A DNA stretch of 62,741 bases. Origin: Cyanophora paradoxa CCMP329. Lineage: Eukaryota > Plantae > Glaucophyta. The DNA lies in assembly GCA_004431415.1 (NCBI GenBank), contig QPMI01000663.1, positions 1-62,741 of the forward strand, in the 5' to 3' direction. A program made the position numbers and the translations under genes. Positions within the stretch are counted from its first letter, which is position 1, and every line of letters begins with the position of its first letter. The notes beneath the pieces were generated by a model. It saw only the letters and a list, made by a program, of their open reading frames with translations. It had not been told where the DNA came from and did not search any database. Shown here piece by piece: positions 15,000 to 56,228 of the stretch.

Positions 15000-15040
15000 C
15001 CGGAATCGGCCGAGCTCTGGTCGGGGGAGAGGGGAGGGAA

Positions 15041-15076
<36 letters not shown>

Positions 15077-16425
15077 GAAATTAAAACGCGGCTAGGTGCG
15101 GTCTTGTTGAGGTGTACCCGGCCCCTCTCACTTGCCGGATTTGAGAGCGGTTTCCGCTGTACCCTGACCGTACGATACATAGACCTGGAATCGGCCGAGC
15201 TCTGGTCGGGGGGGGGGGGAAGGGGGGTAGAGAGGGTAGAGGGCAAGGCCGCAAGGGTACCAGACGGACAAGCTCAAGGTCACTAAGGCGCCGGTCTCAA
15301 TTGCAACCCCTCGGCCGATTTCAGGTCTAGAGATTTAGAACGGGGTCCAACGAGCCGGGGCTGTACCCCGATTGTGTGGTGCATCTAGACCTGGGGTCGG
15401 CCGAGCTCTGGTCAGTGATCATGAGGGAATCGGAGGGCCGCGCGCGCTGCAGGGGTATAGAGGGGTAGGGTCGAAGGATAACGGTACCCCCCGTCGACGT
15501 CCTCCCCACCCACCCCTTTCCCCCACAAGGCCCGCAGACTACAGGAGATCCAACCAGAGCTCGGCCGATTTCGCGCCCAAAGGGGCAGGGTCGAGAGAGA
15601 GCGTGAAAGAAAACCACTACCCCCTCCATCGCGAGATCGCCACACATAGACCTGGGATCGGCCGAGTTCTGGTCGGCAGGGGAGGGGGTACAAGCGAGAA
15701 ACATAGGACGCAGGTGACGGGTTCGACTCTCGAGCGGATCCCTCCCGAAGAACGGCGCGAAAGACACGAGCAGCCTTCGTGAAAACTCGGCCGGCGCTCG
15801 TCTGGTATCAGCGGGTGTTGCGGAACGTTAACTCATCGGCTGGGGTGCGCGGAAAGAGGACGATCTGCGTATACGTAGCGATCATCGGATAGTAGAGCGT
15901 GAGCGACGCGCGGGCAAGCCTGCAGCTGACTACGCGAGAGATAGGGGCGCGTGAGGAGAAGAGAATCAAAGATCGAAACGTTAATTATAACCGGGGAGAG
16001 CCGAACCTGGAAATTTAAATGCGCCGGCAAAAAAAGGGGCCGACCAGAGCTCGGCCGTTTTCGGCTCCTAGGAGCTGTGCAAGAAGAGATCGGACTCGCA
16101 GCATGGGCGCTGGCCGCCGTCGGGGAGGGAGAGGGGAAAAGAGAGGGGTAGAACCACGCGAGAAAATCAAACGGAGAGCCCCCGGCCCGCGCCCCGACCA
16201 GAGCTCGGCCGATTCCGGGTCCATATGGGGGGGGGGGGGGGGGGGGGGGAAGGAGGAAGGGGGGGGAGGGGGGGGATGCAAGCGCGGTTAGGTGCGGGTC
16301 TCGTTCATTGAAAGACGTACCCTCTCACCCCTTGATGGATTCGAGAGCGGTTTTCCGAGAGCAACCCCTGCCAAGCTGTACCCCTAACCGTGCGCGCGGG
16401 GCGCATATATAGACCTGGGATCGTC
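15000..16425. repeat. Motif cluster 1: ~8 copies of (TAGACCTGGRA)TCGGCCGAGCTCTGGTC in both orientations, with poly-G tracts
   Basis: Forward copies near 15006, 15191, 15397 and 15658; reverse copies near 15311, 15553, 16041 and 16195; partial copy at 16411. G runs at 15041-15075 and 16227-16249. Confidence 0.9.
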
Positions 16426-17024
16426 AACTATAAAAATTATAACGTCAACTAGGATGTCCAATAAGTCCGAAGTTCGATCAAGTAGTGGCCACATGGCCGC
16501 TTATCCGGAATGACTTACGGACTGTGATCTAGATCTAGATCTCTCGTAATAAAGCCAATGCGGACGTCGACCGCGGCGCGCGCGAGCGACGGGGCGCCCA
16601 CCGGCGGCGGCCGCCGATCGCGAGTGCTGACGCCCGGCGCCGGCGCGCGGCGGCATCATGCTCCCGGTCCACCCATGGCCACCCCACGCCTAAAGCTAAG
16701 CTTAAGCTAAAGACGCTTCCCGAATGAGCCGAGAAGCTCAAGACCGGTACCGCTGCGGCAATCGCAAGGACCTCTGCCGCAAGGGCGGAGCAAATATATA
16801 TATATCCCATCCTCTTCGTCTATCAACTTTTGCCCCACGTGCAGAGCTCGTTCAGGAAAGACCTAGTACGGGCCGTCGGCTTCGTTAAGAGATCGGGACC
16901 ACTTCTAGCCCTCTATATAACTATCGGTTCCGTCGAGGTATACAAGCCCGCCTCGAGATCGAATTCAGATAAAGATTCAGATTAAGAGGACCAGCGCGCA
17001 TGCACTGTACACGGGCACGCGGGG

Positions 17025-19076
17025 CTAACCTTCCGAGCTCGAAGAGTCGCCATCGGACGAGGAAGACTCGTCCTCCTCCGCCTCGCCGGCGGAATCGGCG
17101 TCGACTTTGAGGTTCTTGCCGAGGGTGAAGACGATGCAGTACCTGCGCACGCGGGTCGCGGGATCAGGGCAGCCGGGGGACGCGCCCGCCGGCGCAGCGA
17201 ACCTAGGATCCGTCTCCCCGTCCACCACCACCTCGTGCTCCAGCAGGTGCCCCTGGCGGAGCGCCGGTTCGTCGCCGGCCGGGAAGAAAGGGGAGAGCGC
17301 CGGCGGGGGCCGGGGCGCTTACTCGGATAAAGACGACGTCTCCGTGTCGCAGGTCGAGGGAGATGCCAAGGGCGGGGAAACGCAGCCGATGCAGCCGCCG
17401 GTCACGGGTGCCGTCGGGGTGAAAGTAGACGAGGGCGGCGTAGGCCTCTTGCGCATCGTTCTTGTCCCGGTGGGACGTCGCGATCCTGGGGGGGAAAGGG
17501 GGGGGGGGGGGGGGGGGGGGAGAGGGAGGAAAGTCGGCATCCAAAGACGTTTTTTTAGGGCGAACTCACGTTTCCGGCGAGTTCATCCACTGCATCGACC
17601 AGAACCCTGCGCGCCCGCAACCGGCGTCGGGCCCGAAAGGGCGGGACGGCGCACGATGGCGGACCGTAATTGTACGGTTGCCGATCGAGGAGGCGAAGCG
17701 CGATCTCCGCCATGTCGCAGCCGGCCTTGACGTCGAAGGCGCAGAGGGCCGGGAACAGGTACTCGAGCACGCCGGCAAAGTACCCGTTCGCGAGGTGCAG
17801 CCGCCGGTTCGCGTTCGTGTCCGTGCCGAACTGCGGGTTCAGCGAGATCTGCAGGAGACCGGGTCGGCTCGCCCGCGCGGGCGGCCCGGGGCGCGGGGCG
17901 CGGGCCGCGCGCGGACCGGAATCGGGACGGACGCGCCCTGGGCCCGCTGGAAGCCGGTGGCGATCCGGGGCCCGCGCTTCTTCTTTGATTCACCGGACTT
18001 GCCCTCGGCGGGGGCCGCTTCCCGGGCCGCGGCGGCCCTCCGCGGCGGGCGCGCCGCTGCGGGGCGCGGGGGCGGCAGGAGCGCCTTCTTCTTGCCTCCG
18101 GGACGCCCGGCGAGCTTCTCCCGCATCACGTCGAGCCGCCCCGTCCGGAGCGCCGCCTCGGCCGCAGCGCGCGCCTCGTCGAGCAGCGTCTGGTCCTGCG
18201 CCGGCGCTCACGTTGCGGTCGCGGGCGGGGGCGCGGGAGGAGGGCGGCCGGCACCCGGGCCTCGTTGTACATGGTGCTGCGGCGGACGGAAAACCTAAAG
18301 GCCGTGGAGGCGCAGGCGACGGCGGCGGCCACCCGCTCGATCCCGGCGCCCTCGCGGAAGAGGCCGGGGAGGTGGACGGCGGCAAGGGCGCCGCTCAGGG
18401 AGATGCAGGCCTGCGCCCCGCGGTCTACGACGTAGTCGTGCCTCGCCTCGTCCTCCTTGGAGCAGCCAGGCGGGAGCGGGGCGACGTAGGCGGCGAACTT
18501 GCCCTGCGGGCGCGTGAGCCGTCGGCGCGGGGACGGGGCGGGACGGGGCGGCGGCGGCACCTCGGCCCGCTGCTTCCGGATGAAACGCGAGTCGACGCCG
18601 CCCCCGAGGAGGTTGCAGGGGAGCACGACGCACCGCTCCGGGGACGTGGCCCACGCCGCCAGCGCCGAGGCGTGCGGCGGTCCGTGCGGCCGTTCGAGCA
18701 GGGCCCCCTCGATCGCGCGGAGGGCGAGCAGGTCGACGGGCGGCGGGTTCAGCCCCAGCTCCGAGCCAAAGTGCTCTGCCAACCGGTCCGGCGGGCCCGT
18801 CATCCCCTCGGGTACTACGCCGAAAGGGAGCTGCGCATGCCGGCGGGGACCGTCGGGGCGCGCGCGCGCGCGCGGGAGAGCGCCCCTTCCGGAGCGCACG
18901 TGCAGGATCTGGCCCCTCCAGCGGACGGGACCGTAGGATCGGTAGCCGTACCGCCTCGTCGCAACGAGCTCGGCGCGCTTGTGGGGGTCTGCGGCGCGCG
19001 TCAGGGCCCCGGGCGCGATGGGGAGGGACGGCGGGGCGAACCATTCGCGCACGCTGGCCCGCCGGGCTTTGAGCAT
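17025..19076 (-). CDS. Multi-exon 2OG-Fe(II) dioxygenase, TET/JBP-like
   Basis: Spliced C-terminus reads ...YNYGFWSMQWMNSPETIATSHRDKNDAQEAYAALVYF...LRFPALGISLDLRHGDVVFIRGHLLEHEVV...RRYCIVFTL. It has HxD (17464-17472), a distal His and a terminal Arg in double-stranded beta-helix spacing. Confidence 0.75.
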
Positions 19077-19267
19077 TCGCGCAGAGTCTTAAGCTTAGGC
19101 GGCGCCGGCCAGACTCCTGCGCGCGGCGGTCGCTCGCCCCCGTATACCCTCGAGAACCCAGTCTAGATAACCCTATTGCAACTTTCAACGCCCCACGTAT
19201 ACGCTAGCGCGCACTCTGCCGGCGCCCACCCCCACCCTTTACTTCATCTAGTAATTTCTGTTTCGAA

Positions 19268-21820
19268 TTATGAACCGAGCACGTGTACAACATAGCTACG
19301 GCTTGCCGTGTCCGCGAGCCGCCCGCAGCATCTCAAGCTTGGCGTGGAGCTCCCGCTGCACCGCCGGATCGCTCGCGCTCTGAGCCGATATCGAATGCAT
19401 TCGCGAGGGGCGAGATGTGAAGAATCGGCAAGACACACCTCGATCTGCTTTACGAGGGACCCCTCGAGCTCCGAGGCCGCCGGCTCCATGACATCCGAGT
19501 CCCGCGCTGGCGTTTGCGGGAGAGGACCGGGTGAGCGGCGAAACGGTCCGGGTGAGGCGTGGGGGGGTGCCCACCGGAAGACGCGTGGTCTTCGTCCTCG
19601 ACGGGCTTGCTGGGACCCGCGGGGGTGGGATCCGCAGGCGTCGGCCTGCGACAGGGCGATCAAAGAAGCGGCGCGGCGCAAGGAGGAGGGCGGCCCCGCC
19701 CACCCGGGAGTCTCCGGAGGGTCCCGGGGATCGTTGGACGTCCCGCCCTCGCCCTCCTCCTTGACGACGGAGGCCAAAGTCTGCCGCGCCTCCTTGATAG
19801 CCTGCCTCCTGCGACTCTCGTGAGAGCTATTCGGGGGGGGGGGGGGGGGGGGGGGGGGGAGCCAAGGGGACGGCTGAGCACAGTTTCGCCACGAGAACGT
19901 CGTTCGGTCGGACCTCCTCCCGCCAGTTTTTCGACCGCATCTGCGTAACGCTGCGGTGGCCGGAATCGGTGGGCGACGAGAGCGGGGGGCGGGGTCGGAG
20001 GCGTACGGGTCGATCGGCGGGAAGCCGAGCGCGCGGGCCAGGAGAACGATGAGGGAGGTGGCGCCGTCGAAGCTGAGGTGGGGAATCTCCGCGAGATGGA
20101 CCTTTCCCCCGAAATGTCGCTCCAGGAACTTGCGCTGCTCTGTCGCGCTCCTCTTGAAAAAGGTGGGCGTCGACCACGTCGCCGTTCTTCGCGAAATGAA
20201 ACGGGGCCCGTCAGTGGCGCGGAGGGAGCACGGGCGCTACGTAAGACCCCGAGACGCGCACGCCGCATCCAGATCGGTCACGTCCTTGCCGTTGATCGTA
20301 CTCCATACCGGTTCGATCTCGGGGAGCCCCCCGTCGCCCGCCTCCTGCGGCCGCCTGACGGAACGCACGGCTTGTCGCCGGCGGGGGCGCGAGGAAACGG
20401 GGCGGGACGCACCGCTCGGCCGCGCGCTCGGGCGAGGATCCATCCGCGGCCGCCGCGTCTCCGACCCTGCGCGGGGATCAGCGGGGGAAAGGTCGAGGCG
20501 CCGCACATCACCGAGGCGGGCACCTTGGGCGCTTGGTACCGTCGGGGCCCGAGGCCGGCGTCGCCTCGCCGCCCCCGGCGGCGCGCTTGCCGGTGGCTTG
20601 CTCCGGCGACGCGACCGTCGGCGGCGGCGCCTCCGGGCTGCGGCGGTGAGCGACGGGGCGACGAGGTCGTGAAGGGCCGGGGGCACGGACCAGTGCTCAA
20701 TGTTGATGCCGCGTGCCCTGCACGCCTCTGCCGTCTCCCTCCGGGCATCGCCAAGGCGCCCCGAGCCGCAGCGCCCCATGCCCAGCTGCGTACGCAGAAC
20801 GTCGAGGGACTTGCGATCGTGAAACGCAGACTTGAGGACGACGAAGGTCCTGCGGCGAGCCGCGGTGAGCACCAGCCGCGCGCCGACGGAGATGGGGAGA
20901 GGAATAGAAGTCTTAGAAGAGGGGTGGGGGGTACCGGGGTGCAGAGGGGTCAACGGGGGTGGCGCCGGGGGCGGCGGCGGCCGGGGCGGGGACGGGGGCG
21001 GCCCCCGCGCCGCGCAGAGCCTCCTGCGCACCAAGGACGCGCTGAACGTCGGCCCGAACCGAGTCCATGCCCAGCTTTCCGCCGGCACCGCGCGGCCAGC
21101 AGAGGTGCACGAACGCGTCCCCGTCCAGCTTCTGCTCCACGGTCGCGTAGACCAGATCGTTCGTCCTGCACTTTTGCACGTACGCGATCTCCGGGAACAG
21201 GTGCCGCGGCCGCCCCGTCCTCTCGTCCACGCCGCATCCCTTGCACGGCGTGCCCGGCATCCCGACGCCGAGCTTGCCGAGGAGCCCGACGAGTCGCGCG
21301 CTCGGCGGGAGCGGTGCGAGGACCTCGAGCGCCTTGGGGGTGCTCAGCACACGGTACGCTGCGCGAGCGGCGTCGGGGGCCCGCGCGGGAGAGGCGGGGG
21401 CGCGTACGCGCGCGCGCGGCGCCGGCGGCCCGGCCGCGGCGCCCTCCCGGCCGCGGCCAGGATACGCACCCAGCGTGACGACGTGGCGGAGCGCTTCGAG
21501 AAACTGCTCAAGCTGCTGCGGCGAAGAGCCGAGCTGCGCTCCGCGCGCCTGCGCATCCGGCCGCGGCCGCGGCCACGGGCGGCGTCATCACAGGTTCAAA
21601 ACGAGCGGTCCGCGCGCGCGTGCGGTGGAAGCGCACCTGTACCGACTGGAGGGTGAGATCCTGCATCGTCTGCAGGTACGCCGCTTTCACGGCCGCCGAG
21701 GACTCGTCGTACGACGCGAACGACTTGAGCTCCGCCGGGAGGCCTAGCACGGCGGCAGGATTGCCCAGGTTGATGCCCCAGAAGTCTCGTGTCGTCCATC
21801 GCCGCCGCCGGCGCCTCACC
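19268..21820 (-). CDS. Multi-exon hypothetical protein
   Basis: Protein-like coding segments (DFWGINLGNPAAVLGLPAELKSF; CKGCGVDERTGRPRHLFPEIAYVQKC; RTFVVLKSAFHDRKSLDVLRTQLG) are separated by gt..cag introns. No family was recognised and the ends are approximate. Confidence 0.5.
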
Positions 21821-21878
21821 CGCGCGCGCGCCGGCCACTGCGCACGATTGGGGGTACGTCGTCGGAACGAGCCGCAGC

Positions 21879-23457
21879 ATGGCGGGCCGCCGGGTCGTGC
21901 AGCGCTGGTTCGACACAGCGTTCATCGTAGCACCGAAGCGATGTCGATTCGTTCGAGCGGGCCCCAGTCCCGTAGAGCTGCTGCAGCAGGAGCCTCAGAC
22001 CTTTGCCGAGGAGGTTCTGAGTCGCATACGGCGGGCCGACCGCGGCCAGTTCGAATCCCTCCACTTGCAATTGGTTGTAGCGACAAAGCGGCGTCGATGC
22101 CAATGGCGCGATTGCCCCCAGTCGACCCGCAAGACTCCCTTCTGCAAGGAGCACCTCGCGAAGCTGAAGGCGAGCACCGCCGTGCATTCGTGCCACTCCC
22201 ACCGTTTCCTTTCCTTACTGACAAAGGTTTAGCTTCGCATTGGCCCCTCCACGGTGTGCGACGGCGAGGGCTTGTTCGCCGAGGCGCTGCCGGAGGAGCT
22301 GGAGGCGGCGGCCGCCAAGGGGCTGCTTCCAACCGAGGTCGAGGTCTTCGGCCCGAACACGCAGTACTTTGTGTGCCTGTACGACGGGTCCGCAGCGCCC
22401 CGCCCCGCCTCAAGCTTGGCGCCCGCGCGGTGCGCCCGCGCCTGACGCGCCGCGCGCTCGCAGGATCTTGGTGACGAACCCGCTCCAGCACTGGTTCGAT
22501 CAGCTGGACGCTACGGGCGAGTGGACGTGAGTGGATGCCCCCCAGCGCCCAGCGCAAAACGTTTGCCCACGCGCGCGGGGGTCGGGCGGGCAGGTTCTGC
22601 TTCAAGATCGACTCTCTCACGTACATCGATGCGGCGCTGCTCAACTTTCTCGGCCGCTTCATCAACTGCGCGTATCCCGACGCGAAGAGGGGCAACGTGC
22701 GGTTCGTGGTGAACACGAGGCGGAAGGAGGTCCTCGTCCGCGCCACCAAGCCGGTCTTCCACCGCCAGGAGGTGCGAAGCCTGCAGGAATTTGCATCTTT
22801 TCGAGTATCTAACGGCACTCGTCCCTTTCCCCGCCGCGCGACCCCCCGAAGCTCATCGCCAAGACCTACGGTGAGCCTCCCCCCTCCCAACCTCCGCCTC
22901 CGCCGCGACCGCGCCTCGGAATCCCTTTGTGACGCGCTCGCGCAGGGGGCGGCTACTTTCCGCGGCTGATGGAGAAGCTCGAGACCGGCAAGCTCTGCCG
23001 GTGCGATTCCCGCGGCGAGGTGCGGATGTCGAACCGCACCGCGCGGGCGAAGCTCCGCGAGGGGTCCTTGAGCACGGAGGAGGACGCTCCCGAGCGCGAG
23101 GGGGGCGACGCCGTGCTCGAGCCCTTCCCTCTCAGCCCTCTCGGCCGGTGGTGGGAGAACCCGCCGAAGCTCCGGCCGCCGCCGAAGCGCAACGCCCCCT
23201 TTGGGGCGCGGCCGAAGAACAAGAAGAAGAAGAAGAACGCGAAGGCGTCCGGCGGCGGGCTCGGCGCGCAGCAGCTGCAGCCGCAGCTCTTTGCCGCCGA
23301 CCCCGAGTCATTCGCGGCCGCGGCCGGCGATCTCGTCCCGCCCCCATCGGGGGGGCCGGCCCTCTTCCTTTCGGGTGCCGGGGCGGAGGTCGCCGCGTTT
23401 TCTTTTCCCGAGGAGATCTCTGTAGACTACGAGATCGAGGGGCACTTCGGGTGCTGA
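21879..23457 (+). CDS. Multi-exon SET-domain protein (putative lysine methyltransferase) with N-terminal C-x4-C-x8-C-x2-H knuckle
   Basis: Spliced: RCQWRDCPQSTRKTPFCKEHLAKLK|LRIGPSTVCDGEGLFAE...CLYDG|...YIDAALLNFLGRFINCAYPDAKRGNVRF...VLVRATKPVFHRQE|LIAKTYG|GGYF...LCRCD. This covers the SET motifs GxGLFA, IDA, RFIN, ELxxxYG and a partial post-SET. Confidence 0.85.
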
Positions 23458-24595
23458 GCTCGAGGGCGCGGGGCTATGGGGTGTCGGGGCGCCCCCCTTT
23501 TTCTTAGGGCTGTCTCGCCATCGTCCACAGTCTACTATTTTAATTTATTCTAGTAATTTTCAAAGTTCGGTTGATTATTTCTTCTTTCATGAGTACTTGC
23601 GTCATTCTCATCAGCTGTGTACGCTTACGTCCGCATCCGAGCCATGTACACTCGATAGCTAGCCTAGCGCTAGCTATATCTAGTACTAGCTTGTAGTGTG
23701 CATGCCCGTGCATGCGCATGCGCAACGTTGACTGCGCGTGCTGGCCGACGCATGCATGCTGCAGCTGGGGGAAATTGGTTAAAACGTTGATAAGGGCCTA
23801 AGTCGGCCTGGTCCGCGCGCGCCGGCGCGGCCGGGCGCGGCGGTCAACGCACATGTACAACGATATATGGTGACGTCGACTCGGTGACTTCACTTTTGAC
23901 CGATGCCGGCGGCGATCAAATTGTCGAGGCGGTGGTTTTGCTGTACCCTTAAGCTTTCCGGTCACGGAGTGGAATCGACGTCGGGCACGTCCGGACCCGG
24001 GAGTGGCAATCTCAACCGTCGGACATCGTTTCGGCATCACGCACGTTAACTCATCATACCCACGTAGAGCAGAATCTGTGTGCGCGTCGTCGGACCGCGA
24101 CGAACAGCAACCAGCTCGCTGCACTGCGGCAGGCCCTAGATAGCTAGCCATAGCTATAGGACCGACGTTGACGCAGTCGCCGCGCGGCGCAGCCGACTCC
24201 AACGCCGGCTTAACGTCAACGTTCAAATTCGCCGCGGCCGCGCGCGGCCCGGTCCCGCGCGGATCCCCGGGCCGTCGGACGACGTTTGATTGCCTATAGC
24301 TATAGGCTTTAGCCACGCCTATAGCTAGTGCCACGGTGGTTCGACGGTTCCGATATATACTGCAGTCACGCACTCTTAGTACGGTACGTATACGTATACT
24401 ATAGCCTAGTAGCTAAAGCTATAGCTAGCTACAATACCGAGTCCGCGGCCGGCCCCCGCATGCGCATCGGCGAACTTAAGGATCCCGCGCAGGCCGGCAC
24501 CAGCGCTATAGTTAGCCAGATTGAGATTCAGTGCGCCGTGCCACGGTGCACGCGGCGCCGCTCGACGAGCCTCGGGGTTGATATCATCGCGCACC

Positions 24596-36247: not shown

Positions 36248-36273
36248 CGACGACCAGGTGCTCCTGGATGCCG

Positions 36274-38331: not shown

Positions 38332-38581
38332 GGTCCACGGGTGGAGGATCGATTGGGGTCGAAGAGTGCGGGGCCGACGGGCGCGGACGGCGATCTAGGC
38401 GGCTGCCCCGACCGATTCAACCAAAACGGTCGCCCGCCCAGGCGTGTTTCGCACGACTCGGTCGCCTCCCAAGGGTACCCCTTTCCCCTCTCACACCCCC
38501 GCCCCCTCTTCCCCTCCCCTCCTGGCCTCTATCCACCCTCGCACAACGACCGCGGAGTCGCGCTGCTTCTCTGTCAGGGGA

Positions 38582-38739
38582 TGGGAGGTCGCGCTGCCGT
38601 ATACGTACCCCTCTGTGTCACGCGTAGACCCGGAATTGGCCGACCTCTGGTCGGGTGTGGGGGGGAGGGGGGGAGGGGGGGTAGTGGTGAGCGCCGTGCC
38701 GGCCCGGCGCCCCTACCCCTCTCCTCGATACCCAACCAG
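38582..38739 (-). repeat. Right arm of ~160-bp inverted repeat (partner 35840-36005)
   Basis: Reverse complement of 35840-36005. Confidence 0.92.
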
Positions 38740-38752
38740 CGCTACGCGGGAC

Positions 38753-39236
38753 ACAGAGGGGGTACGTGTACGGCAGCGTGACCTCCCACCCCCGACCAGA
38801 TGTCGGCCAATTCCGGGTCTACGCGTGAAGAGAGGGGGTACGTGTACGGCAGCGTGACCTCCCACCCCCGACCAGAGGTCGGCCAATTCCGGGTCTACGC
38901 GTGAAGAGGGGGGGTACGTGTACGGCAGCGTGGCCTCCCACCCCCGACCAGAGGTCGGCCAATTCCGGGTCTACGCGTGAAGAGAGGGGGTACGTGTACG
39001 GCAGCGTGGCCTCCCACCCCCGACCAGAGGTCGGCCAATTCCGGGTCTACGCGTGAAGAGAGGGGGGTACGTGTACGGCAGCGTGACCTCCCACCCCCGA
39101 CCAGAGGTCGGCCAATTCCGGGTCTACGCGTGAAGAGAGGGGGGTACGTGTACGGCAGCGTGACCTCCCACCCCCGACCAGAGGTCGGCCAATTCCGGGT
39201 CTACGCGTGAAGAGAGGGGGTACGTATACGGCAGCG
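38753..39236. repeat. Motif cluster 3: tandem array of 6 x 76-77 bp units
   Basis: cgaccagaggtcggccaattccgggtctacgcgtgaagagagggggtacgtgtacggcagcgtgacctcccacccc recurs at 38793, 38869, 38945, 39021, 39098 and 39175. Confidence 0.97.
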
Positions 39237-39397
39237 CCGCGTGAGACGACGCGCGAGGTTACGGAAATGCTCCCCTTTGTGTTTTTGCAACAACGAGCTA
39301 GAGTCGGGGCGCGTGCGTCCCAACCGACGCTGCACTGGCGTGCAGAAAAACAGAGAGGGAGAGGGGGGGGATGCGGGCGGGCGACGGCATCGTCGGC

Positions 39398-40009
39398 TCA
39401 CGCGCTCGGCGCGGCGCCGTTCCGATCGGGCGGGGAGAGCCAGGCGGGGTCGACGAAGCGCGCGCAGAGGGCCCGCGGGAGGGCCGGGTCCAGCCCCGCG
39501 GCGGCCTCGGCGAGCCTCGCCGCGTAGGCCTCGCGCCCGGCCTCGTACAGGCGCCTGTGCGCCGCCGAGAGCGGCACGATCTCGAGGCCCGGGTCGGCGC
39601 GGCAGAGGGGGCACCGGAGCGGCGCGATCGGGAGGATGCAGCCGAGGCAGAAGACGTGCCCGCACCCGAGGCGCGTCGGGCGGCACGGGTGCTGGAGGCA
39701 GACGGCGCACACGGCGTCCTCGGCGAGCGCGGCGCGCGCGGCGGGGCGCCACAGGTTGCTCGCGCACGTCCAGGCGACGTGGGCGGCGCGGCCGACGGCC
39801 TCGTAGCGCGCCAGGGCGCCGGCGTCGCGGGTGGGGTCGCCCCCGGCCGGCGCCTCGACGATCTCGCTCACGATGCGGCTGGACTTGACGCCGAGCGCGA
39901 GCGGCGCGGCGATCACGCCCCGGGCGGCGTCGTAGGCGTGCCCGTCCAGGTACTTCCACCGTCCGAGGTCGTAGGTGCGCTCGGGCGCGGGCGCGGCGGC
40001 AGAGGCCAT
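39398..40009 (-). CDS. C3HC4 RING-finger protein (putative E3 ubiquitin ligase), intronless
   Basis: CAVCLQHPCRPTRLGCGHVFCLGCILPIAPLRCPLCR. Confidence 0.9.
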   Translation of the reverse strand: MASAAAPAPERTYDLGRWKYLDGHAYDAARGVIAAPLALGVKSSRIVSEIVEAPAGGDPTRDAGALARYEAVGRAAHVAWTCASNLWRPAARAALAEDAVCAVCLQHPCRPTRLGCGHVFCLGCILPIAPLRCPLCRADPGLEIVPLSAAHRRLYEAGREAYAARLAEAAAGLDPALPRALCARFVDPAWLSPPDRNGAAPSA

Positions 40010-40298
40010 TTTTTCCGAGGGTGTTGGCGGGGGGAGGGTACGAGGAATCTGGGCGGGGCGCAGACCCTCCCCTCTACCTCCTAGGAGATCTCCGGGGGGT
40101 ATTTAGCCGTTTGCCCTCTGGCCCCCGCCCCTGCTACCCCCCCCGGCCCCCACCCCCTCCCCCTTTCCCTTTTCCCCCTCTCGCCCCCACCTCGCCGTTT
40201 CGGCCCAACGGACCGAATCGCACGACTCGGCGGCCGGTGGCGCCCCAACACATAAAAGAGAGGCGCCCCTCTGTCCGGGCGTCAGTCTCTACTCGACG

Positions 40299-43200
40299 AT
40301 GAAGCGGCCGGCGGACCCCGCCGCCCCCGAGGAGCCCACCTGCGCCCGAACCGGACCGGCACCGCCGCCGGTGCCGTCGCCCCCCAAGGCGGTCGCGGAT
40401 GCAGAGGGCGACCTCGAGATGGAGGACAAGGCGCCGGTGGGCGCGACCGCGCCGCCCTCGGGCGCGCCCCTCCCCGCCCCCGCCGCGAGCCAGATCGTGC
40501 GGACCACGGTCCTCGTCAAGAGCAACCCGCGCAAGGGCGCCGCGCGCGACGCGATCTTTGCCGTCCCCTGGCAGCCCGCCGACGTGGAGAGGCTCGAGTC
40601 GCCGTCCGCGCGCCGCGCCGTCGTCCAGATCTCGCCCCAGATCCTCGTCGAGCACGCGGGCGGCGCCCGGCGCACCCTCCGCGCGTTCAACGTCTTTGAC
40701 TTTGACGTCCCCAACATCCGCTTCCCCGAGGCGCTGGAGGGCGGCTCTCTCGGGAGGGAGCAGCTGAAGAACGCCAAGAAAGAGTACCTCGCCGGCGTGC
40801 TGGCGCGATGCGAGACCCTCGCCCAGTACTGGACCGAGGTCCCCGAGATCCTCGGCGTCGCCCGCCGCGCGCGCGACTTTGCCCGGGCCCTCCAGGCGCG
40901 CGGCGTCGCCGTCCTCGTCGTCTTCTCGGGCCTTAAGGGCTTCCACGTCTACGTGCGCGACGCCGACCTCGTCGCGGCGGTCGAGGGGCCCGGCGCCGCC
41001 GTGTACGCCAAGGAGGACCTCGACCAGTGGTGGGGCATCGTGCGCGCCAAGCTCAAGCGGCTCGAGGAGGACTCGGCGGCGGCGCTGCGCGACCCGTCGG
41101 TCCCGCAGGGGGAGAAGAGCCGCCTCCGCCGCTCCTTCTGGTCCAAGGCCACGCGCGCCGCCGGCCCGCGGCGCGTCCCCGGCATGTACAAGGCGGGACG
41201 GTGGGAGGGGCGCGAGGCCTTTGAGCGCGTCGTCGTCCCGTTTGCGGAGGAGCGCGGGATCGGGGCGATGGTGGAGCAGCTGGAAAGGGAGGGCGTCCTG
41301 GACCTCGCGCCGTTCCGCGTCAACAGCGGCTGCCGCTCCGACGAGCACCGCCACGGCTGGACCTCCTACTACCCCGTGGCGGTACCCCTGGAGGCCGTCG
41401 ACGACGCGGCGATCGCGGCGACGGTCCGCCTGCACGCCACGCGGCCCGACCCGCTCCTCGTCGCGTGGAACAGCGACGAGTGGCGCTGGCTGCGCGAGCT
41501 CGCGCGCGAGATCGCCCCCAAGCACACCCTCCACGTGGCGGCCCCCGCGGACGGCGCCCGCCCTCCGCCGCCCAAGCGCCCGCGCGCCCCCCCGGGCCCC
41601 CGGCCGCCGCCGACGCTCGATCGGGAGGGCGAGGAGGAGGAGGAGGAGGGCGGGGGTGCGGAGGACGGGGACGCCGAGGACGAGGCGACGATCAGCGAGG
41701 GCGTGGTGGAGCGCCTCGGGCTCCTCGCGTGCGGGGCGGGGCGCGGGCGGGGCTGGAGCGCCGCCCCCGGCCGCGGCCGCGGCGGCCGCGGCGGCCCCTC
41801 GATCTCCCACTTTGTTTCGCCGCCCGACGCGGACGGGGGCGAGCTCTGCCCCCACGGGCGGGACCACGAGCGCGTGGAGACGAGCATGTGGGTGGCGGAG
41901 AGCGGCATCCCCGGCGTCCTCGCCGCGACGGCGCACTGCTACTCGCTCCGCTGCGCCGGCGAGCCGCTCCTGGGCGCCCTCGCGTGGGCCCAGCCGGGCG
42001 CCTTTGGCGGCGCCTCGACCCTCGCCCAGGCCGACGCGGCGCTCCTGGGGCTCCACGCCACCGTCGCCCGCATCGCCGACCGGAGCCTCCAGCTTGCGGA
42101 GAGGCTCGCGCGCGCGGCGGCGGCGGCGGCGGCGGCAGAGGCGCAGGCGGCAGCGGCGGCGGCAGAGGGGGAGGGGCAGAGGGGAGGGGGCAGAGGGACG
42201 GGCCCGGAGGACGGCGCGCGCGGGGCGGCGCCGGCGCCGGCCGCCCCGCCCTCCCGCAGCGGCCGGCGGGGGCGCTGCCCCCGTCCGCGTCGCCTCGCAC
42301 GTCGAGGGCCGCTCCTACTTTGTCCGCGTCCCCTGCTGGAGCTGCGGTCACCGCAAGGGGAAGCTCTTCATCGACCAGACGAGCGGGGAGGCCGAGGAGC
42401 GCGGTCAGGTGCGCGTCCGGGCGTGCGGCGCGGCGGCGTGCGGCGGGCGCTGGGCCTGCGGGCCGCTGGAGCTCGGCGAGGACGACGCGACCGAGCTCCG
42501 CCTCGCCGAGGACGAGGTGGACATGTTCTCCCTCCGGCTCTTCCCCGAGCAGGCCAAGTCCATGGGCGCCGGCACCTTTGGCGCGACGGCCCGCAACCCG
42601 TACTGGGCGGAGCTCCCTCAGGGCGCCGTCGACTACCTCGATGCCGTCGTCGCGTGGCTGCGCACGCTCGGCGCCGGCGCGGCGCTCCCCTCCGACGGCG
42701 GCCCCGAGCGGCGCGTCCGGCCCCGCGGCGTCGGGCCCCCGGGCTCCTTTCCCCTCGAGGACGGCGCGACCGGCGGGCCGGCGGCGCGGCTGCACGCCAT
42801 GCTGCCGGACCTCGCGACGTGGCGCGCTGCCCTCCGCCTCCCCGAGCTCTCCCGGCCCCTCGCGATCCCGGCGGACTTTGATCCCGTCGCCCGACGCTGG
42901 ATCGACATCGACGAGCCGGCGGGCCCGGGGGCCCAGCGCTTCTGCAGCCCGGCCCCCATCCTCGCGCGCCTCGACGGCGGGAGGAAGACGATCTTTGTGC
43001 GGGCAGAGACCGGGAGCGGCAAGACGGAGACGTGCGTGGGGGGCCGCGAGGGCGCGGCGGGGCCGGGCCCCCGGGGGATCCTGCAGGCGGTGCTGGACGA
43101 CCCGGCGCTCGTGGGGCTCCCCAGCGTCCCCGGCGCGCCGCCCCGCGTCCTCTACGTGACGGCGGGGCGCGTCCAGCCCGACATCCTCGTCAAGGACCCC

Positions 43201-46200
43201 CGCTTCGCGGCCCTCTCCTACCCCTCGGCGTCGGGCGAGCGCGTGCCGGTCGCCTGGACCGTCTACAAGGAGGCCCGCCCCGAGGAGCTCGCCGACGCCT
43301 CGTTCGTCATGTGCACGGTGCAGAGCGGCCGCCGGCTCGAGGGCGACTTTGACGTCGTCATCGTCGACGAGGGGGCGCGGGCCCTCACGACCCTCACGAC
43401 GGGCGGGCCGTTCAAGGGGCCCGAGCACCACGCGCAGACGGTCGCCTGGTTCGACAGGGCGCTGGAGGCGCCGGCGCTCGTGATCGTCGCCGACGCCGAC
43501 CTGCTGGACGAGGACGCCGCCCTCTACGCCGCGCGCCGCCCGGGGGCGGACGTCATCTCGTACCTCAAGCGCGGCAGCAACGACGCGCGCCTGCGCTGGA
43601 CGGCCATCGACATTCGCTACGCCGCCGCCGTGATCGCCGCCAAGCTCCTCGCCGGCGAGGTCGGCTACATCGCCTGCTCGACGCGGCGCGCCCTCTGGGA
43701 GATCGAGTCCATCGTGCGGCGCCACATGCGGCTCTCCGGGCGCCGCTGCGAGTTCCTGTACGCCGACGCGGACCGGCGCGCGAGGCAGACGATGACGGAC
43801 TCGGACTACGTCTGCTCCGCCCTCTGCTACGCTTCCAACTACGCGATGCCCCAGGGCACCGACTTTTCCAGCGGGCCGCCCGCCAACTTTGTCGCCTACA
43901 TCGAGGAGGGGCGGACCGCCGACGTCAACGCCGGCTTTCAGCTCGTCCGCCGCCGCCGTCACGTGATCGGGCCCGACGCCTTTTTCTTCTGCCGGTTCCC
44001 CCGCAAGGCCCCCCTCCCCGACCGGCAGGGGCGGCCCCTGCACGCCCCCGTCGACTGGCGGGCGATCTACGGCGAGCTGGTGGACTCGGTGCGCGCGTGG
44101 AACGAGCGGCTCCCCGCGGAGAGGCGCGTGGCGACCGAGGAGCACTACCTCCGCGTGCGGGCCGTCCGCACGGCGCTCCGGAACGCGACGCACGCGTGCC
44201 CCATGCTGGCGTTTCACCTGAAGCTCCGCTCGCTCGGCAACGAGGGCCTCTACGTGTACCCCCTGCCCCAGCCCCCGAAGAAGCCCAAGGGCGGCGCGCG
44301 CGCGGGCCCGAGCGCGCCGGCGGCGCCGGCGGCGGGGGGCCTCCCCTGGATGCCGGAGGGGTACTCGGACTCTGCCGTCCCCCTGGCGGCCGAGGTCGAG
44401 GCGCGCGAGCGGCTCCTCCCCATCGTCGCCGCGCCGCGGCTGCTGGGCTACGACTGCGCCAAGGCGATCCGGGGGGCCATGGAGTACGGGACGTCCACGG
44501 TGGAGGTCTCCGACGCGGCGCGGCGCGCCTGGAAGCGCGAAAAGGCCGCCGCGCGCTTCGGGCTGCGGCCCGAGCAGGTGGGCGTCGCCGAGGTCCGCCT
44601 CTCGGAGCAGAGCCCGCCGGCGGAGATCTTCCGCCTCTCCAAGCGGTTCGCCCTCGACACCCTCCCGTACCTCGCCTCGGGGGCGGCCCCCGACGAGGAG
44701 AGCGCGACGCTCCTCCCGGACCACCGCGAGCGGCGCCGCCCCTTTGAGAGCGCCCTGCGGCTCTTTGAGCTGCTCGGCGCGCGCGTCCCGCCCGGCGGCG
44801 GCGCGGCGGCGGCGGCGAGCGACGTCGCGGCCGGCCTCCGTTACCTCTTCTGGGCGACGTGGGAGGGGCCGGAGGACTGCGGCGCGGCGCGCCTGCGCGG
44901 GCTCGGCGAGGCGATCGAGGAGGGTGGCATCTTTACCGACGGGCCCCTCGGGCGGCTCTTTGCAAACGCCTGCCGCGCGGCGTGGGAGCGGATCGCGATC
45001 CCCTACTCGCCGATCGCCGCGTACCGCGCCGACGCCCTCCGCTGGCAGTGCGCCGAGCTCTGGCAGCTCGAGTGCCTCCGCCCGGAGAAGCGCAACAAGG
45101 GGGCCGCCCCTCCCCCGATCGGGGACTGCGCGCGGCGCCTCCTGCACGACCTCGTCGTCCACGCCGCGGAGCAGCTGGGCCTCGGCGTGCTCGTCGCGGC
45201 GGCCGACGCGCGGCGCGTGGTGCGGGGCGGCGCGCGCAGGACCGTCAAGCGCACGCGCTACTGCTTCGACCCCGAGACCGTCCTCCTCGGCCTGCGCCTC
45301 TACGGGCGCGATCGGGACGGCCGCGGGGACGTCCCGCCCGACGCGACGCTCGGGGCGCTCCTGGCGGCCGGCGTGCGCTCCCTCCAGATCGCGCTCGTCC
45401 AGGATCCAAATTCCAAGCTCCGGGCGGCGGGCGCGGGCGGCGGCGGCGGCGAGGGCGGCGAGGGTGGCGCCCCGGGCGCGCCGGCAGAGGCGGGGGCCCG
45501 CCCCCGCCCGAGCGACGCGGCGAAGCGCGTCGTCCGGCTCCTCAAGTCGGGCGTGCACTCGGCGGTCTTCTTCTCCGGGGCGGCGCGCGCGGTCCTCGGC
45601 GAGGACGCCGCCCGCTGCTGGCGCGGGGCCGGCGACGGGGAGGAGGAGGGGGACGGGGCCACCCGCGCGTCGCCCTACGCAGAGGTCCTGGCGCGCGTCG
45701 CCGCCTCCGAGGCCCCGAGGCCCTCGCCCCGATCGCGCCGCCCCTCGGCGCCGGCGCCGACCCGACCGTCGCGGCGCTCTGCGCGCGGGACCTGGCGCGC
45801 GCCGCCCTCGCGATGGACGACGGGGCGGCGCGGGAGGGCCTCGGCTTCCCCGCCGCGGAGGAGTCTCCCGCCCTCCCCACCGAGGACGTGACCTGGCTCC
45901 TCGGTCGCCTCGCCGAGGCCGCCGGCGCCCCCGCCCAGCGCGCCTCGGAGTGGTGCCCCGTCGTGGAGGGGCGGGAGGGGCCGGACCCCTGCGTCGGGTT
46001 TGCGTACACGTCGATCTTTGCGCGGGACCTCCCCCAGGAGCGCCGCACGCTCCCCTCGTCCGGAATCGACGTGGCGCGCACGGGCTCCGACACCTCGGGC
46101 ATCAGCCTCTTCGTGGACGGCGCGGCGCGGCTCCTGCCCGAGGACCTCGCGCGCCCGCGCGTCGCCCGCGGGCCGCGCTCGTGCGGGGCGAAGATGCTCC

Positions 46201-46298
46201 TCTTCGTACCCCGCTCCACCTTTCAGCACTTTGGCGTACCCCTCTTGGCCCTTCCCCTCCGCCCCGCCCCGGCACCTACCCCCGCTCCCCCTGCGTGA
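40299..46298 (+). CDS. ~2000-aa AEP primase(-polymerase) fused to Zn-binding motifs and an SF2 helicase of the herpesvirus UL9/origin-binding-protein type; two apparent frameshifts (~42250, ~45715)
   Basis: AEP motif I VFDFD and motif II FSGLKGFHVYV. CPH...HCYSLRC and CWSCGH...CGAAAC. Walker A IFVRAETGSGKT, Walker B DVVIVDE, and LVIVADADL, GYIACSTR, YASNYAMPQGTDF. Confidence 0.8.
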
Positions 46299-46510
46299 AT
46301 GCGAAATTCGATGTGCGGTCCGCGCCCCCTCCCCCCGCGCCGAGTCGTTTGAAAGCGCGCCGCCGCGTTGTGCGCTCTCCCAATTTGGCTCTTTTTTTGC
46401 CTGCCCGCCGCTTTCGCTTGATTCGGGCCCTCGGCGCCGATAAAACTCCTCTCCCCGCGCCGCTTGGCTCACTCTTTTTGCCTCTTCTCATCGCAGATCA
46501 CGACCTGGCC

Positions 46511-48367
46511 ATGGACTCTACCACGACGATGAACCCCCACGCAGACCTCGCCACGACGATGACCGCGGCCGGCGCTCCCCGCCTCGTCAAGAAACCCGTC
46601 AAGAAACCCATCAAGAGCGACTTCTGCACGCGGATGGACCTCCTCCCGGTCGACCTGTCCGAGGCAATCCTGCACTACCTCGGGCGCGAGGACCGCCTCA
46701 AGATGCTCACCGTCTCCCAGCAGTCCCGCTCCTTTGCGCTCGGCACCTCGGGCGTCTCGAGCGGCTGGTTCGACGCCCTCGCGGTCGACGACGCGCTCGC
46801 CCTGCTCGTCGGAGGGCCCGGCGCGCCGCGCGGCGCCCGCCTCCGTCTCATCGCGGGGCGCGGTCACGGGGCGGAGATCCCGATCCCGTCGCGCCTCGGC
46901 GGCCTCGACGCGACCTTTGCCCTCCCGACAGAGCCCGGGAGCGAGGGCCGCTGGGTGTGCATCCTCTTCCCCCCGGCGGCGGCGGCGGGGGCCGAGGACC
47001 TCTCCCCGCGAGGCGCCATCATCCGCTACGGGCCGGGCGGGTTCGGCGACGCCCTGCAGATCCCGGCCGGGTTTCCCATTCACGACTTTGCCCGCGGTTC
47101 CGTCTCCATCGCCGGCGACGGGACGATTGTGCTCGGCGGCGAGCGCGGCTGGCTCGTCTGGTCCGCCGACGGCGGCGTCTCGGCGGTCGACGTCGGCGCG
47201 GCGGTCGCCGGCGTGGTGGCGTGCCGCCCCTCTCCCGACGCCTCGCGCGTCGCGATCTGCAGCGTCGTCGGCGACGGCGGCTCCGCGGGCGGCCGCGTCC
47301 TCGTCCGCTTCGTGGGCTCTGGCGAGTCTGCAGAGGGCGCCGCCGCGGCCCCCGCGGCCGACGCCGGCCCCCTGCGCTCGACAGCGGCGCGCACGCGGCT
47401 CTCCCACGAGCTCGCCGAGGTGGACGGCTCCGGGGACCCCTCGGCCCTCGGCGACTGGAGCGACGTGCCCCTGCGCGAGTGCGACGCGAGCCTGACGTGG
47501 AACGCGCGCGGCAACGCCGTGCTGGTGCGGATCAAGGTGGCGCGCAGCGGTATGGAGGCGGGCGATGTGGAGATGGGCGACGCCGGCGGCGATGTCGACG
47601 TCGACAGGATGGAGGACGACTGCAGCGTCGACGAGCCCGCCGCCCGCGAGGAGGCCTTTGTCGAGTTTATCGCGTCGGTGCGGCTCTCGGGCGGCGCTGC
47701 GCGCCAGGGCTGGTGGATCGTCTGCGGCGCCGAGCCCGCAGAGGCCTTTGCCGTCGGTCTGGGCGAGAACTGGCTCCTCCACGCGGCTCGGGACGTGGGC
47801 GGCATCCGGAGCGCGTCCATGTACGTCTACTACCTCGCCGGTGGCGCCTCTGGTCGCCCCACCATGGTCGAGCTGCACATGCCCTGCGAGGGCAAGTCGT
47901 GGCGATGCGTCACGCCCGTCGGCGACTGGAACTTCATCTACCAGGCCGCCGGTCAGTTTGAGCTCAACGGGACCAGCGTCGATCGCCCTTTTCTGGTCTC
48001 CGTGACGCCCTACGCCCGCGACCTGGAGTATTTCGAGCTGCCCGAGGCCAGCGGTCTGCTGGAGGCGCGCTCCATCCGCCCGCTGGGAGCCGTCGGACTG
48101 CACGGGGTGGCGGCCCTCGCGGTCGGGACGGACCAGGACGCCCCCGCGCCGTTCAACGTCGTCCGGTACATCCGCTGGTCGGGGATCGGGAGGCTGGCGG
48201 GTCAGGGCGGCCCGTTTGCGGCGTCGATCAGCACCCACCTGCAGCACAACACGTTTCGGCCGACCCGCGAGTGGCTGGACGATCGCTACTACACCGTCGA
48301 GGGCGAGCGGCACAACAACACGCTCACGCTCTTCCCCGGCGAGCCGCAGCCGACGCTGCACGTGTGA
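46511..48367 (+). CDS. F-box protein with beta-rich (propeller-like) C-terminus, intronless (~618 aa)
   Basis: MDLLPVDLSEAILHYLGREDRLKMLTVSQQSRSFAL matches the F-box consensus LPxELxxxILxYLxxxDLxxLxxVSK. Confidence 0.75.
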   Translation: MDSTTTMNPHADLATTMTAAGAPRLVKKPVKKPIKSDFCTRMDLLPVDLSEAILHYLGREDRLKMLTVSQQSRSFALGTSGVSSGWFDALAVDDALALLVGGPGAPRGARLRLIAGRGHGAEIPIPSRLGGLDATFALPTEPGSEGRWVCILFPPAAAAGAEDLSPRGAIIRYGPGGFGDALQIPAGFPIHDFARGSVSIAGDGTIVLGGERGWLVWSADGGVSAVDVGAAVAGVVACRPSPDASRVAICSVVGDGGSAGGRVLVRFVGSGESAEGAAAAPAADAGPLRSTAARTRLSHELAEVDGSGDPSALGDWSDVPLRECDASLTWNARGNAVLVRIKVARSGMEAGDVEMGDAGGDVDVDRMEDDCSVDEPAAREEAFVEFIASVRLSGGAARQGWWIVCGAEPAEAFAVGLGENWLLHAARDVGGIRSASMYVYYLAGGASGRPTMVELHMPCEGKSWRCVTPVGDWNFIYQAAGQFELNGTSVDRPFLVSVTPYARDLEYFELPEASGLLEARSIRPLGAVGLHGVAALAVGTDQDAPAPFNVVRYIRWSGIGRLAGQGGPFAASISTHLQHNTFRPTREWLDDRYYTVEGERHNNTLTLFPGEPQPTLHV

Positions 48368-48706
48368 TCGGCGGCCCGTGCGCTCCCGTGCGCGTTTCTC
48401 TCCCGCGCCGCCGATCCCTTTCGTCCAATAGGATCGTCCTTATTGAATGTTACCAGTTTTTTTTTGCGTGGTGGGGGGCCGGGCCGGGGCGGGGGTGGTG
48501 GTAGATGGCGCGGGCCCGAGGGGTGGGGCTAGGGGGGCGGGGGGGGGCGGGGGGGCCGAGGGGGGTACCCTCTGGAGCACCGAGTTGGTTGAGCGCAGCA
48601 ACTTGAAGGCCCGATTCGGACGAAAGGGTCCCCTGGTCTCCCAAAAAGCCGAGCAGGTGCGCGATGCGGTCATTCTTTCTCACATCGTCAAGAACCGAGA
48701 ACAAGG

Positions 48707-49267
48707 ATGGCCGCCGCCCAGCCCTGGCAACACCCCCGTCGCAACGTCCTGATCGACATGGGAGAGCTGGTCAGCGACTTTTTCCGCTACAACTACGACG
48801 CCGAGGACGCCGACCTCTACGACAGCGACGTCGTGGCCCTCGCGACCAAGGCCAAGGCCGGCGAGGTCCCCGCGCGCGAGACGGACGACGCGCTCCAGAA
48901 GCTCCGGCCGACCGCGGAGCGCATCCGCCCCATCGCGACGGGCCTGTTCGCGGCGAGCGTCCGGCAGTACTCGGGCGGTCTCATCGAACTCCAGAACGTG
49001 TTGGGGCGCGCCTTTGCGAACCGCGTCGACGCGACCTTGGCCTCGCGCGCCCAGGGCCAGGGCCCGCAGGCCACCTCCTCCGACCTGGCGTACGTCGTCT
49101 TTCCCGTGGAGCTCTGGTACGAGATGCTGTCGTGCGCGGGATCCGAGATTCTGCACTTGGACCTGTACGAGCGCGTCGTCCTCGGGATAGTCCCCCTTTT
49201 CCTCACGATGCTCCGCGCCGGCAACATTCGCGTTGCCGCCGGCAAAGTTCTGTCGGCGATCTCGTGA
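48707..49267 (+). CDS. Intronless hypothetical protein (186 aa)
   Basis: ORF MAAAQPWQHPRRNVLIDMGELVSDFFRYNY... with GC3 bias. Confidence 0.7.
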   Translation: MAAAQPWQHPRRNVLIDMGELVSDFFRYNYDAEDADLYDSDVVALATKAKAGEVPARETDDALQKLRPTAERIRPIATGLFAASVRQYSGGLIELQNVLGRAFANRVDATLASRAQGQGPQATSSDLAYVVFPVELWYEMLSCAGSEILHLDLYERVVLGIVPLFLTMLRAGNIRVAAGKVLSAIS

Positions 49268-49587
49268 GCAGAGAATATATTGTGCCGAGCGCATTCAAAG
49301 TGCGTAGAGTTTTTGTGTGCGGTGTGGGACTGAGAATCGAACTGACATGCGCGCACGCGCGCGTGCTCTCGTTTCCGGCTCTACGCATAACTTTGGGGGC
49401 CAGCTCGAGCTCCTGGACGCACGGGCTCGATGCACGCGGGGCTCTCGAGTAGAGTCGCTGCAGTTTGGCGCGCGCGGCGCCGGCCCCAGAGCGCGCGTGA
49501 GGGCATTTTCGTGATCAAGAATGGTTTTTGTTTTATCTTTCAAACAATCGACGTGCGGTTGCGGGGTGCCTGGGGGATTTTCGTACC

Positions 49588-50560
49588 CTGCCGCCGTCGC
49601 CTCATAGAGCCGCGATCGGCCGAGCTCTGTGCAGGGGGGGCAAGGGGGGGGGGGGGGGGGGGGGGAGCGGAGCGGACGGGGGTACGGATCAGGAAGCGTC
49701 CGGCATCGCCCTACCCTCGGCGGCAGCACCCCCTGCGCAGAGCTCGGCCGATTCCGGGGCGAGAGAGAGGGCGAGAATAGACAGAGGGGTACGCACCTCT
49801 GCCGCCGCCGCTCATAGAGCCGCGATCGGCCGAGCTCTGTGCAGGGGGAGGAAGAGAGGGAGGGGCGGAGCGGGCGGGGGTACGCATCAGGAAGCGTCCG
49901 GCATCGCGCAGCCCTTGGCGGCAGCGGCCCCTTGCGCAGAGCTCGGCCGATTACGGGACGAGGGTGCGAGAAAATAAGCAGAGGGGGTAATCACCTCTGC
50001 CGCCGCCGCTCATCGAGCCGCGATCGGCCGAGCTCTGTGCAGGGGGGGCAAGGGGGAGAGGGGCGGAGCGGGCGGGGGTACGCATCAGGAAGCGTCCGGC
50101 ATCGCGCAGCCCTTGGCGGCAGCGGCCCCCTGCGCAGAGCTCGGCCGATTACGGGGCGAGGGTGCGAGAAAATAAGCAGAGGGGGTACTCACCTCTGCCG
50201 CCGCCGCTCATCGAGCCGCGATCGGCCGAGCTCTGTGCAGGGGGGGCAAGGGGGAGAGGGGCGGAGCGGGCGGGGGTACGCATCAGGAAGCGTCCGGCAT
50301 CGCGCAGCCCTTGGCGGCAGCGGCCCCCTGCGCAGAGCTCGGCCGATTACGGGGCGAGGGTGCGAGAAAATAAGCAGAGGGGGTACTCACCTCTGCCGCC
50401 GCCGCTCATCGAGCCGCGATCGGCCGAGCTCTGTGCAGGGGGGGCAAGGGGGAGAGGGGCGGAGCGGGCGGGGTACGGACCAAGGTGAGCGTCCGGTATC
50501 GCGCCCTACCCTCGGCGGCAGCGGCCCCCTGCGCAGCGCTCGGCCGATTACGGGACGAGG
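49588..50560. repeat. Motif cluster 4: 5 tandem ~198-bp units, each with two inverted copies of the motif
   Basis: gagccgcgatcggccgagctctgtgcagggg at 49607, 49817, 50015, 50213 and 50411, each followed by cccctgcgcagagctcggccgatt. Confidence 0.96.

Positions 50561-56197: not shown

Positions 56198-56228
<31 letters not shown>

Follow-up and report, generated by a model that had tools for sequence, protein, structure and literature searches.

What purpose is served by some thirty copies of one palindrome, gathered in four intergenic clusters of a glaucophyte genome? The window analysed here is a whole stretch of 62,741 nucleotides from Cyanophora paradoxa CCMP329 (assembly GCA_004431415.1, contig QPMI01000663.1, positions 1 to 62,741 of the forward strand), and an integrated element of 47.9 kb within it (11285..59160; unit ~47,876 bp, delimited by self-alignment and public contig ends) contains all four clusters. 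A sequence-only reading of this DNA had likened the repeats to the homologous regions (hrs) of baculoviruses and to herpesvirus oriS, and had proposed that they are either origins bound by a UL9-like helicase or nucleation sites for a histone H3 variant. We conclude that the palindromes are very probably selected protein-binding sites. That the clusters act mainly as hr-like origins, perhaps also as enhancers, is the interpretation we favour by analogy, and we hold it tentatively.

The motif was represented by a 34-bp profile built from 20 distinct 34-mers, with which both strands of the 62,741 bases were scanned at a threshold of 8 bits. The 31 matches above this threshold comprise one half-site at 15314 and 30 full copies, 14 on the plus strand and 16 on the minus strand (7, 6, 7 and 10 in clusters 1 to 4), in agreement with the earlier count of about 30 copies in four intergenic clusters and both orientations; a second left half-site, which ends at 16423, lies beyond these matches. 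The scan found no copy elsewhere in the window, including the 11.3 kb of host flank, where none had been noticed before either. The 14-mer TCGGCCGAGCTCTG occurs 18 times exactly and its TTGG variant TTGGCCGACCTCTG seven times, all inside the four clusters, and at up to one mismatch the motif has 21 occurrences against 0.16 expected (100 shuffles, maximum 1). It is an imperfect palindrome of 26-30 bp, centred between GG and CC, with the consensus TAGACCYGGRATCGG to the left of the centre and CCGAGCTCTGGTCGG to its right. The overlapping small palindromes described previously are present, but both are parts of this one larger dyad. Likewise, the leader TAGACCTGGGA, said to precede the core often, is found four times exactly and eight times at one mismatch, but cluster 4 has other left halves.

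Tests on the motif were confined to 14 non-redundant copies, with 16 tandem or inverted duplicates excluded. The two half-sites agree at a mean of 8.1 of 13 positions, and at 4.4 of the outer nine against 2.6 expected. Identity is 78% in the core versus 31% in the flanks (90 pairs), a comparison that is partly circular, the copies having been chosen by their core. The core contains two CpGs, and the most conserved stretch runs from -5 to +10; since the best-kept part is off-centre, the site is polar. The G skew of the 3' flank exceeds that of the 5' flank in 14/14 copies, G4-like tracts number 17 in the 4.0 kb of clusters (4.3/kb) versus 71 in 43.9 kb elsewhere (1.6/kb), and a GGGTA/TACCC box stands 31-44 bp upstream of the motif in 9/14 (rotation null P=0.004). 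A stem-loop or cruciform of the kind used for single-strand initiation was considered and set aside, for only 1/14 copies reached a z below -2 when folded, at both 30 and 90 nt. Long dyad sites in clusters, kept in sequence but not in structure, point to a dimer as the likely binder, with duplex DNA as its target.

The clusters differ in how their copies are arranged. Cluster 1 (14995..16424) has seven full palindromes, centred at 15009+, 15194+, 15400+, 15564-, 15661+, 16054- and 16208-, plus the left half-sites at 15314- and 16424+. With irregular centre spacings of 86-393 bp it is no tandem array; the sequences at either end of it (15031-15153 and 16227-16353, 73% identity) stem from an old direct duplication. 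Cluster 2 (35172..35963) has six palindromes, three of them within an array of 69/83-bp units, and cluster 3 (38624..39203) has seven of the TTGG variant, six within a 76-77-bp array. Ten palindromes of alternating orientation make up cluster 4 (49604..50558), which has a 198-bp unit. The previously reported units of 76 and 198 bp therefore stand, and that of 68-81 bp is replaced by 69 and 83 bp. Clusters 2 and 3 are linked by a duplication, 38577-38739 being an inverted copy of 35840-36010 at 90%. This inverted 170-bp repeat brackets a 2.6 kb two-gene segment, which could invert.

A neutral or selfish micro-repeat, whether the remnant of a miniature inverted-repeat transposable element (MITE) or a minisatellite seed, might multiply in this way through slippage and gene conversion. 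Sixteen of the 30 copies are indeed redundant through recent tandem or inverted duplication, the G-tracts favour slippage, and conversion could keep copies alike. Against this, the same core is embedded in unrelated units whose flanks are near random identity, and the copies have no common termini, MITE-like or otherwise, and no target duplications, while their accessory boxes vary in side and orientation. The distribution of the motif points the same way. Public contigs of two DNA runs were compared with the cluster 1 segment 15085-16222 at 80% likeness, a check that detects close variants only, clusters 3 and 4 being unseen among the matches listed. Matching contigs numbered 9/271,541 and 12/1,176,635; the additional motif contigs that could be placed represent the cluster 2 unit or a diverged sister copy of the element, and a further two align at a purine tract alone. 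The motif is thus rare in public contigs and not abundant across the genome outside the element. One sister contig carries a minus-strand motif (35/36), then 62 letters unaligned at 80%, then a plus-strand motif (35/37) followed by a diverged spacer, with alignment resuming at 15718; the window's own gap measures 65. In another, the motif is followed by a flank resembling the single, unique exact match at 16164-16174. Its rarity, together with its retention in the sister copy despite drifting spacers, shows that the motif is no dispersed MITE and makes selection on it likely; a neutral micro-repeat is a highly improbable account of the array.

Cluster 1 also contains a non-motif block (15718-15809) that is ~91% kept in the sister copy and includes a B-box-like 10-mer; the conserved block 15715-15815 folds poorly (z +1.2). 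A tRNA or Pol III interpretation was discarded, with no tRNA gene found by ARAGORN and the B-box-like 10-mer present once against 0.79 expected. Rfam covariance models gave five sub-threshold matches in the window, none of them within the clusters.

If the palindromes are bound, the binding protein is most readily sought among the products of the element. Self-alignment shows that 11276-14880 recurs at 59152-62741 with 99.3% identity, beginning at 11285/59161; a second head-to-tail copy, of which only the start is present (59161..62741), is cut off by the end of the window ~110 bp short of its cluster 1. Public contigs stop at 59160 in 3/3 DNA runs; past 59160 and 59169 they enter two unrelated flanking sequences, a sign of further insertion sites. 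One right-end contig retains nine extra bases (59161-59169) that equal the start of the element's left end, and another retains none, a difference that hints at a variable crossover core. The presumed agent of movement is encoded at 53560..57926 (minus strand, intron-split), where a CE-clan (Ulp1-like) protease is fused to a likely tyrosine recombinase. Eight homologues at 50-79% support the call, with Phage_integrase matches (E ~0.02) in 3/8 and Peptidase_C48 in 3/8, and PDB profiles match the protease part to CE-clan deubiquitinases at 1e-7. A GIY-YIG nuclease (52389..53093, minus strand; Pfam 4.3e-8) lies beside it.

These two enzymes raise the prospect that the palindromes are their recombination or resolution sites. 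A recombinase could well use a motif of this length and dyad form, the two half-sites break off no more than 5 bp from the centre, and the inverted 170-bp duplicate joins clusters 2 and 3. But neither element junction carries the motif (best profile score ~-18), and the centre of the palindrome is symmetric and most conserved, unlike a crossover spacer. Thirty active sites in both orientations would, moreover, scramble the element. We consider recombination very unlikely to be what the clusters are for.

A better candidate for the binding protein is the intron-split primase-helicase gene at 40299..46298 (plus strand; gene models P0001/P0012), which likely joins an AEP primase to a UL9-like helicase of superfamily SF2. 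The relationship of the helicase to UL9 emerges from three methods: the top Atlas cluster, defined by language-model features, carries PF02399 on 53% of its members; a PDB profile search gives a UL9-like match at E=0.03; and the top Foldseek matches are origin-binding proteins at 6e-9 and 2e-12 (model pLDDT 65). In the N-terminal domain the DxD and SGLKGFH motifs are retained at 41% identity, alongside weak Pfam primase matches, and on this sequence evidence it is likely an AEP primase. No polymerase gene was found by Pfam, PHROGs and NCBIfam scans, which also missed the helicase. Given a recombinase, a primase-helicase from an origin-binding family and no detected polymerase, the simplest role for the clusters in this element would be as the origin of an excised circle. 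The recombinase would release the element as a circle, and a dimeric initiator would bind the palindromes cooperatively. The primase-helicase is the best candidate for this initiator because its family includes origin-binding proteins. Its helicase would open the DNA and its primase domain would prime synthesis, with extension presumably by host polymerases, given that the polymerase gene was not found. Each cluster may also act as an enhancer of the gene whose start lies 300-930 bp away.

Several observations weigh against an origin. The helicase is UL9-like, as the sequence-only reading had it, but its role as the binder is less secure: the UL9 box occurs once in the window, at 29140 and outside the clusters, and helicase residues 600-960 have no usable Atlas match, so this C-terminal part contains no recognisable UL9-type origin-binding domain. 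The primase region matched no PDB profile, which leaves the primase call to the motifs and weak Pfam matches, and no cluster adjoins the primase-helicase gene. The clusters are not AT-rich (29-38% AT, unlike baculovirus hrs), no AT-rich unwinding region or spacer was found at them, and the GC skew does not switch there. Pfam scans of 34 and 101 open reading frames (ORFs), which missed the helicase too, returned no IE-1-like or other baculovirus family. The accessory box is only moderately supported, because its downstream counterpart in the sister copy is altered to GGGATC and GTACCCC occurs in element introns too. Finally, the second copy is error-rich, with 1-bp deletions that are filled in public contigs, and no public contig among the matches listed bridges the head-to-tail junction; for these two reasons the junction may represent a tandem, a circle or an assembly artefact.

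Could the clusters instead regulate transcription alone? As enhancer or anti-silencing sites they would recruit a transcription factor that switches on four genes, including that for TFIIB. In every case the neighbouring genes are co-directional, and one of them starts 300-930 bp away, with the cluster upstream: a gene with a Cys/His-rich N-terminus (12677..14708, minus strand; no Pfam match) starts 300 bp from cluster 1, a small ORF (33857..34261, minus; no family match) ~930 bp from cluster 2, a 212-aa ORF (37693..38331, minus; no family match) ~310 bp from cluster 3, and a TFIIB-like gene (50892..51566, plus; Pfam TFIIB 5.6e-7) 350 bp from cluster 4. With only four clusters, this upstream position has no statistical force. 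Copies would work in both orientations, and TFIIB, the H3 variant and a SET-like ORF are all encoded by the element. The host, furthermore, methylates its repeats at CpG (PMC12344493), and the core has two such sites. On the other hand, six to ten long sites per cluster would exceed what a promoter typically needs, the promoters of the replication and recombinase genes are without clusters, and a separate promoter-like motif precedes several genes. We therefore regard a purely regulatory role as unlikely, if worth keeping in view, and continue to prefer origins.

The separate motif, (TC)GCRCGACTCGG, was noted near several gene starts (35318, 37093, 38449, 40218 and 50757, plus strand). It occurs as four exact 13-mers, with five occurrences at one mismatch versus 1.3 expected; twice it lies ~25-35 bp ahead of a CATAAA box, and it forms a near-perfect palindrome at 50745-50770.

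The other proposal of the sequence-only reading, nucleation of the H3 variant, directs attention to an intron-split gene at 11594..12525 (minus strand; Pfam Histone 3.3e-7, splicing inferred). The variant exists and has features of a centromeric H3 (CenH3). Its fold has a long loop 1 with ~11 extra residues, Thr in place of Gln68 and Trp in place of Phe84, and the best PDB matches of the C-terminal fold are Cse4 (5.8e-14) versus H3.3 (4.2e-13), from a gene model that is without part of helix 1. Its tail is of the canonical H3 type (3e-13) with an 8-residue insertion. CenH3s have divergent N-terminal tails, and replacement of Phe84 is a CenH3 criterion. A longer loop 1 and loss of Gln68 are features of CENP-A (PMC11633173); a long loop 1 occurs also in a viral H3 (PMC9145170). 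In public contigs, two sequence types ~95% alike extend across the H3 end of the element.

On this basis the clusters could be partition loci, at which an element protein would bind and deposit the CenH3-like histone, securing passage of the circle through mitosis in the manner of the yeast 2-micron STB locus. Besides the three features of the fold and the Cse4 match, the parallel gains from the fact that STB too consists of repeats to which plasmid proteins bind, and contains Cse4 (PMC2064333, PMC6344848). What speaks against it is the tail, which is canonical and so unlike that of CenH3s, the small margin in favour of Cse4, the occurrence of a long loop 1 in a viral H3, and the GC-rich character of the clusters. 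Four separate centromere-like loci, or any in a host chromosome, would also be expected to be harmful. Partition is, in our estimate, distinctly improbable. Even more doubtful is a combination of the two ideas, in which the element would represent a new class of glaucophyte episome-transposon, nuclear, self-replicating and without a capsid. A recombinase would insert and release it, its primase-helicase would fire from the palindromes, and its own H3 would mark the clusters as sequence-defined mini-centromeres; if true, no mobile element before it would have been known to bring a centromeric histone of its own.

How do origins of this kind compare with known systems? The analogy with hrs holds in layout, with several loci of imperfect palindromes of hr size. 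A baculovirus hr has 3-8 repeats of a 24-bp imperfect palindrome and acts as origin and enhancer (PMC4535591), and hr palindromes of 30 bp are bound by IE-1 (PMC6669502). The element shares with the hrs of Autographa californica multiple nucleopolyhedrovirus (hr1-5) and SpltNPVII (Sphr1-7) a set of intergenic loci with 3-10 imperfect palindromes of 24-30 bp on a nuclear double-stranded DNA replicon. It differs in that its clusters are GC-rich with polar G/C flanks, that it is integrated, in what is likely a glaucophyte host, and that IE-1, a polymerase and other baculovirus genes were not found in it. With UL9 of herpes simplex virus 1 it shares a helicase whose fold is closest to origin-binding proteins, without a recognisable C-terminal domain; unlike oriS, the clusters have no UL9 box or AT-rich spacer and offer 30 sites rather than a few. 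Fusions of an N-terminal AEP domain to a UL9-like helicase are found in mimivirus R8, African swine fever virus pF1055L and some mriyaviruses (PMC11253617). The likeness to STB is that of a repeat array on a selfish nuclear element with a tyrosine recombinase. STB also holds CenH3 chromatin (PMC2064333). It is, however, a single locus of direct repeats that borrows Cse4 from the host; in the element the loci number four, the palindromes face both ways and the H3 variant is home-made. The array is real and element-specific, a set of likely selected binding sites, hr-like yet neither a baculovirus hr nor a herpes oriS.

Polinton-like viruses, which are integrated protist elements with a primase-helicase and a tyrosine recombinase (PMC10120064), are another point of comparison. 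They measure 15-30 kb; the element is 48 kb long and intron-rich, without terminal inverted repeats. Neither a capsid protein nor a packaging ATPase was detected in it by the Pfam, PHROGs and NCBIfam scans, which also missed known domains. The main text of PMC10120064 does not mention Cyanophora, and no mention of viruses, recombinases or histones was found in the Cyanophora genome paper (PMC6704402), which gives 11.5% unknown repeats. Literature searches at the level of listings and abstracts found no account of the element, although supplementary tables of viral elements could include its contigs; the family looks undescribed.

Relatives were found in one species. Three helicase homologues were recovered by word search and five by a full scan of 1.84 billion proteins, giving six distinct proteins, all labelled Cyanophora paradoxa, and the eight recombinase homologues have the same naming style. 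P0015, which has frameshifts in common with the window's second copy, was not counted as independent. Both genes occur together on tig00020509 (g9756, g9764) and tig00020553 (g10527, g10514), the respective helicases having 35% and 28% identity. To judge from these two pairings at such divergence, the element belongs to an old family inside one host. One recombinase homologue is fused to GIY-YIG, and most are on contigs in which no helicase match was found, for which reason recombinase-only elements may exist. Searches beyond the species gave little: a 24-letter degenerate motif had no match in metagenome contigs, and of the candidate stretches that viral contigs yielded for the helicase and the recombinase, 0/2, 0/9 and 0/96 were confirmed. 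The 32 matches of a 15-mer in viral contigs, single and unclustered, were taken as chance, and the one metagenome helicase/recombinase candidate confirmed among 564 was dropped as a low-complexity bacterial match.

To our knowledge, binding sites of the UL9 helicase family are known only in herpesviruses. Were the clusters origins, this family would gain a defined sequence together with a candidate initiator, and an hr-like architecture would have arisen, or persisted, far outside insect viruses, in an integrated algal element and paired with a UL9-family primase-helicase. Vectors for Cyanophora could then be given a replicon made of a cluster and one gene. As for the element, with its recombinase, primase-helicase, TFIIB and H3/CenH3-like histone, diverged paralogous families of it exist within the species.

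The remaining genes bear less directly on the clusters. A RING-finger protein is encoded at 39398..40009 (minus strand; Pfam zf-C3HC4_3 4.3e-5, below the curated cut-off). By eye, and with no Pfam match, an intron-split SET-domain-like gene was recognised at 21879-23457 and an F-box-like propeller gene at 46511-48367 (both plus strand), and a small ORF with a Skp1/BTB-like start and no family match at 58451-58873 (plus strand). In runs guessed to be RNA, one contig maps to 57950-58457; for cluster 1 there is one low-depth contig of the sister type, and none in the second run. The block at 23500-31900 is low in GC (55-64%) and contains, besides an intron-split AAA ATPase gene, intergenic DNA that resembles the host's; it is likely captured cargo, and no termini were found for it at 23.4-32 kb. 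The host flank, for its part, contains at 9879-10003 a hairpin whose 55-bp arms (96%) enclose a 15-bp loop and which gives a sub-threshold match to a microRNA family.

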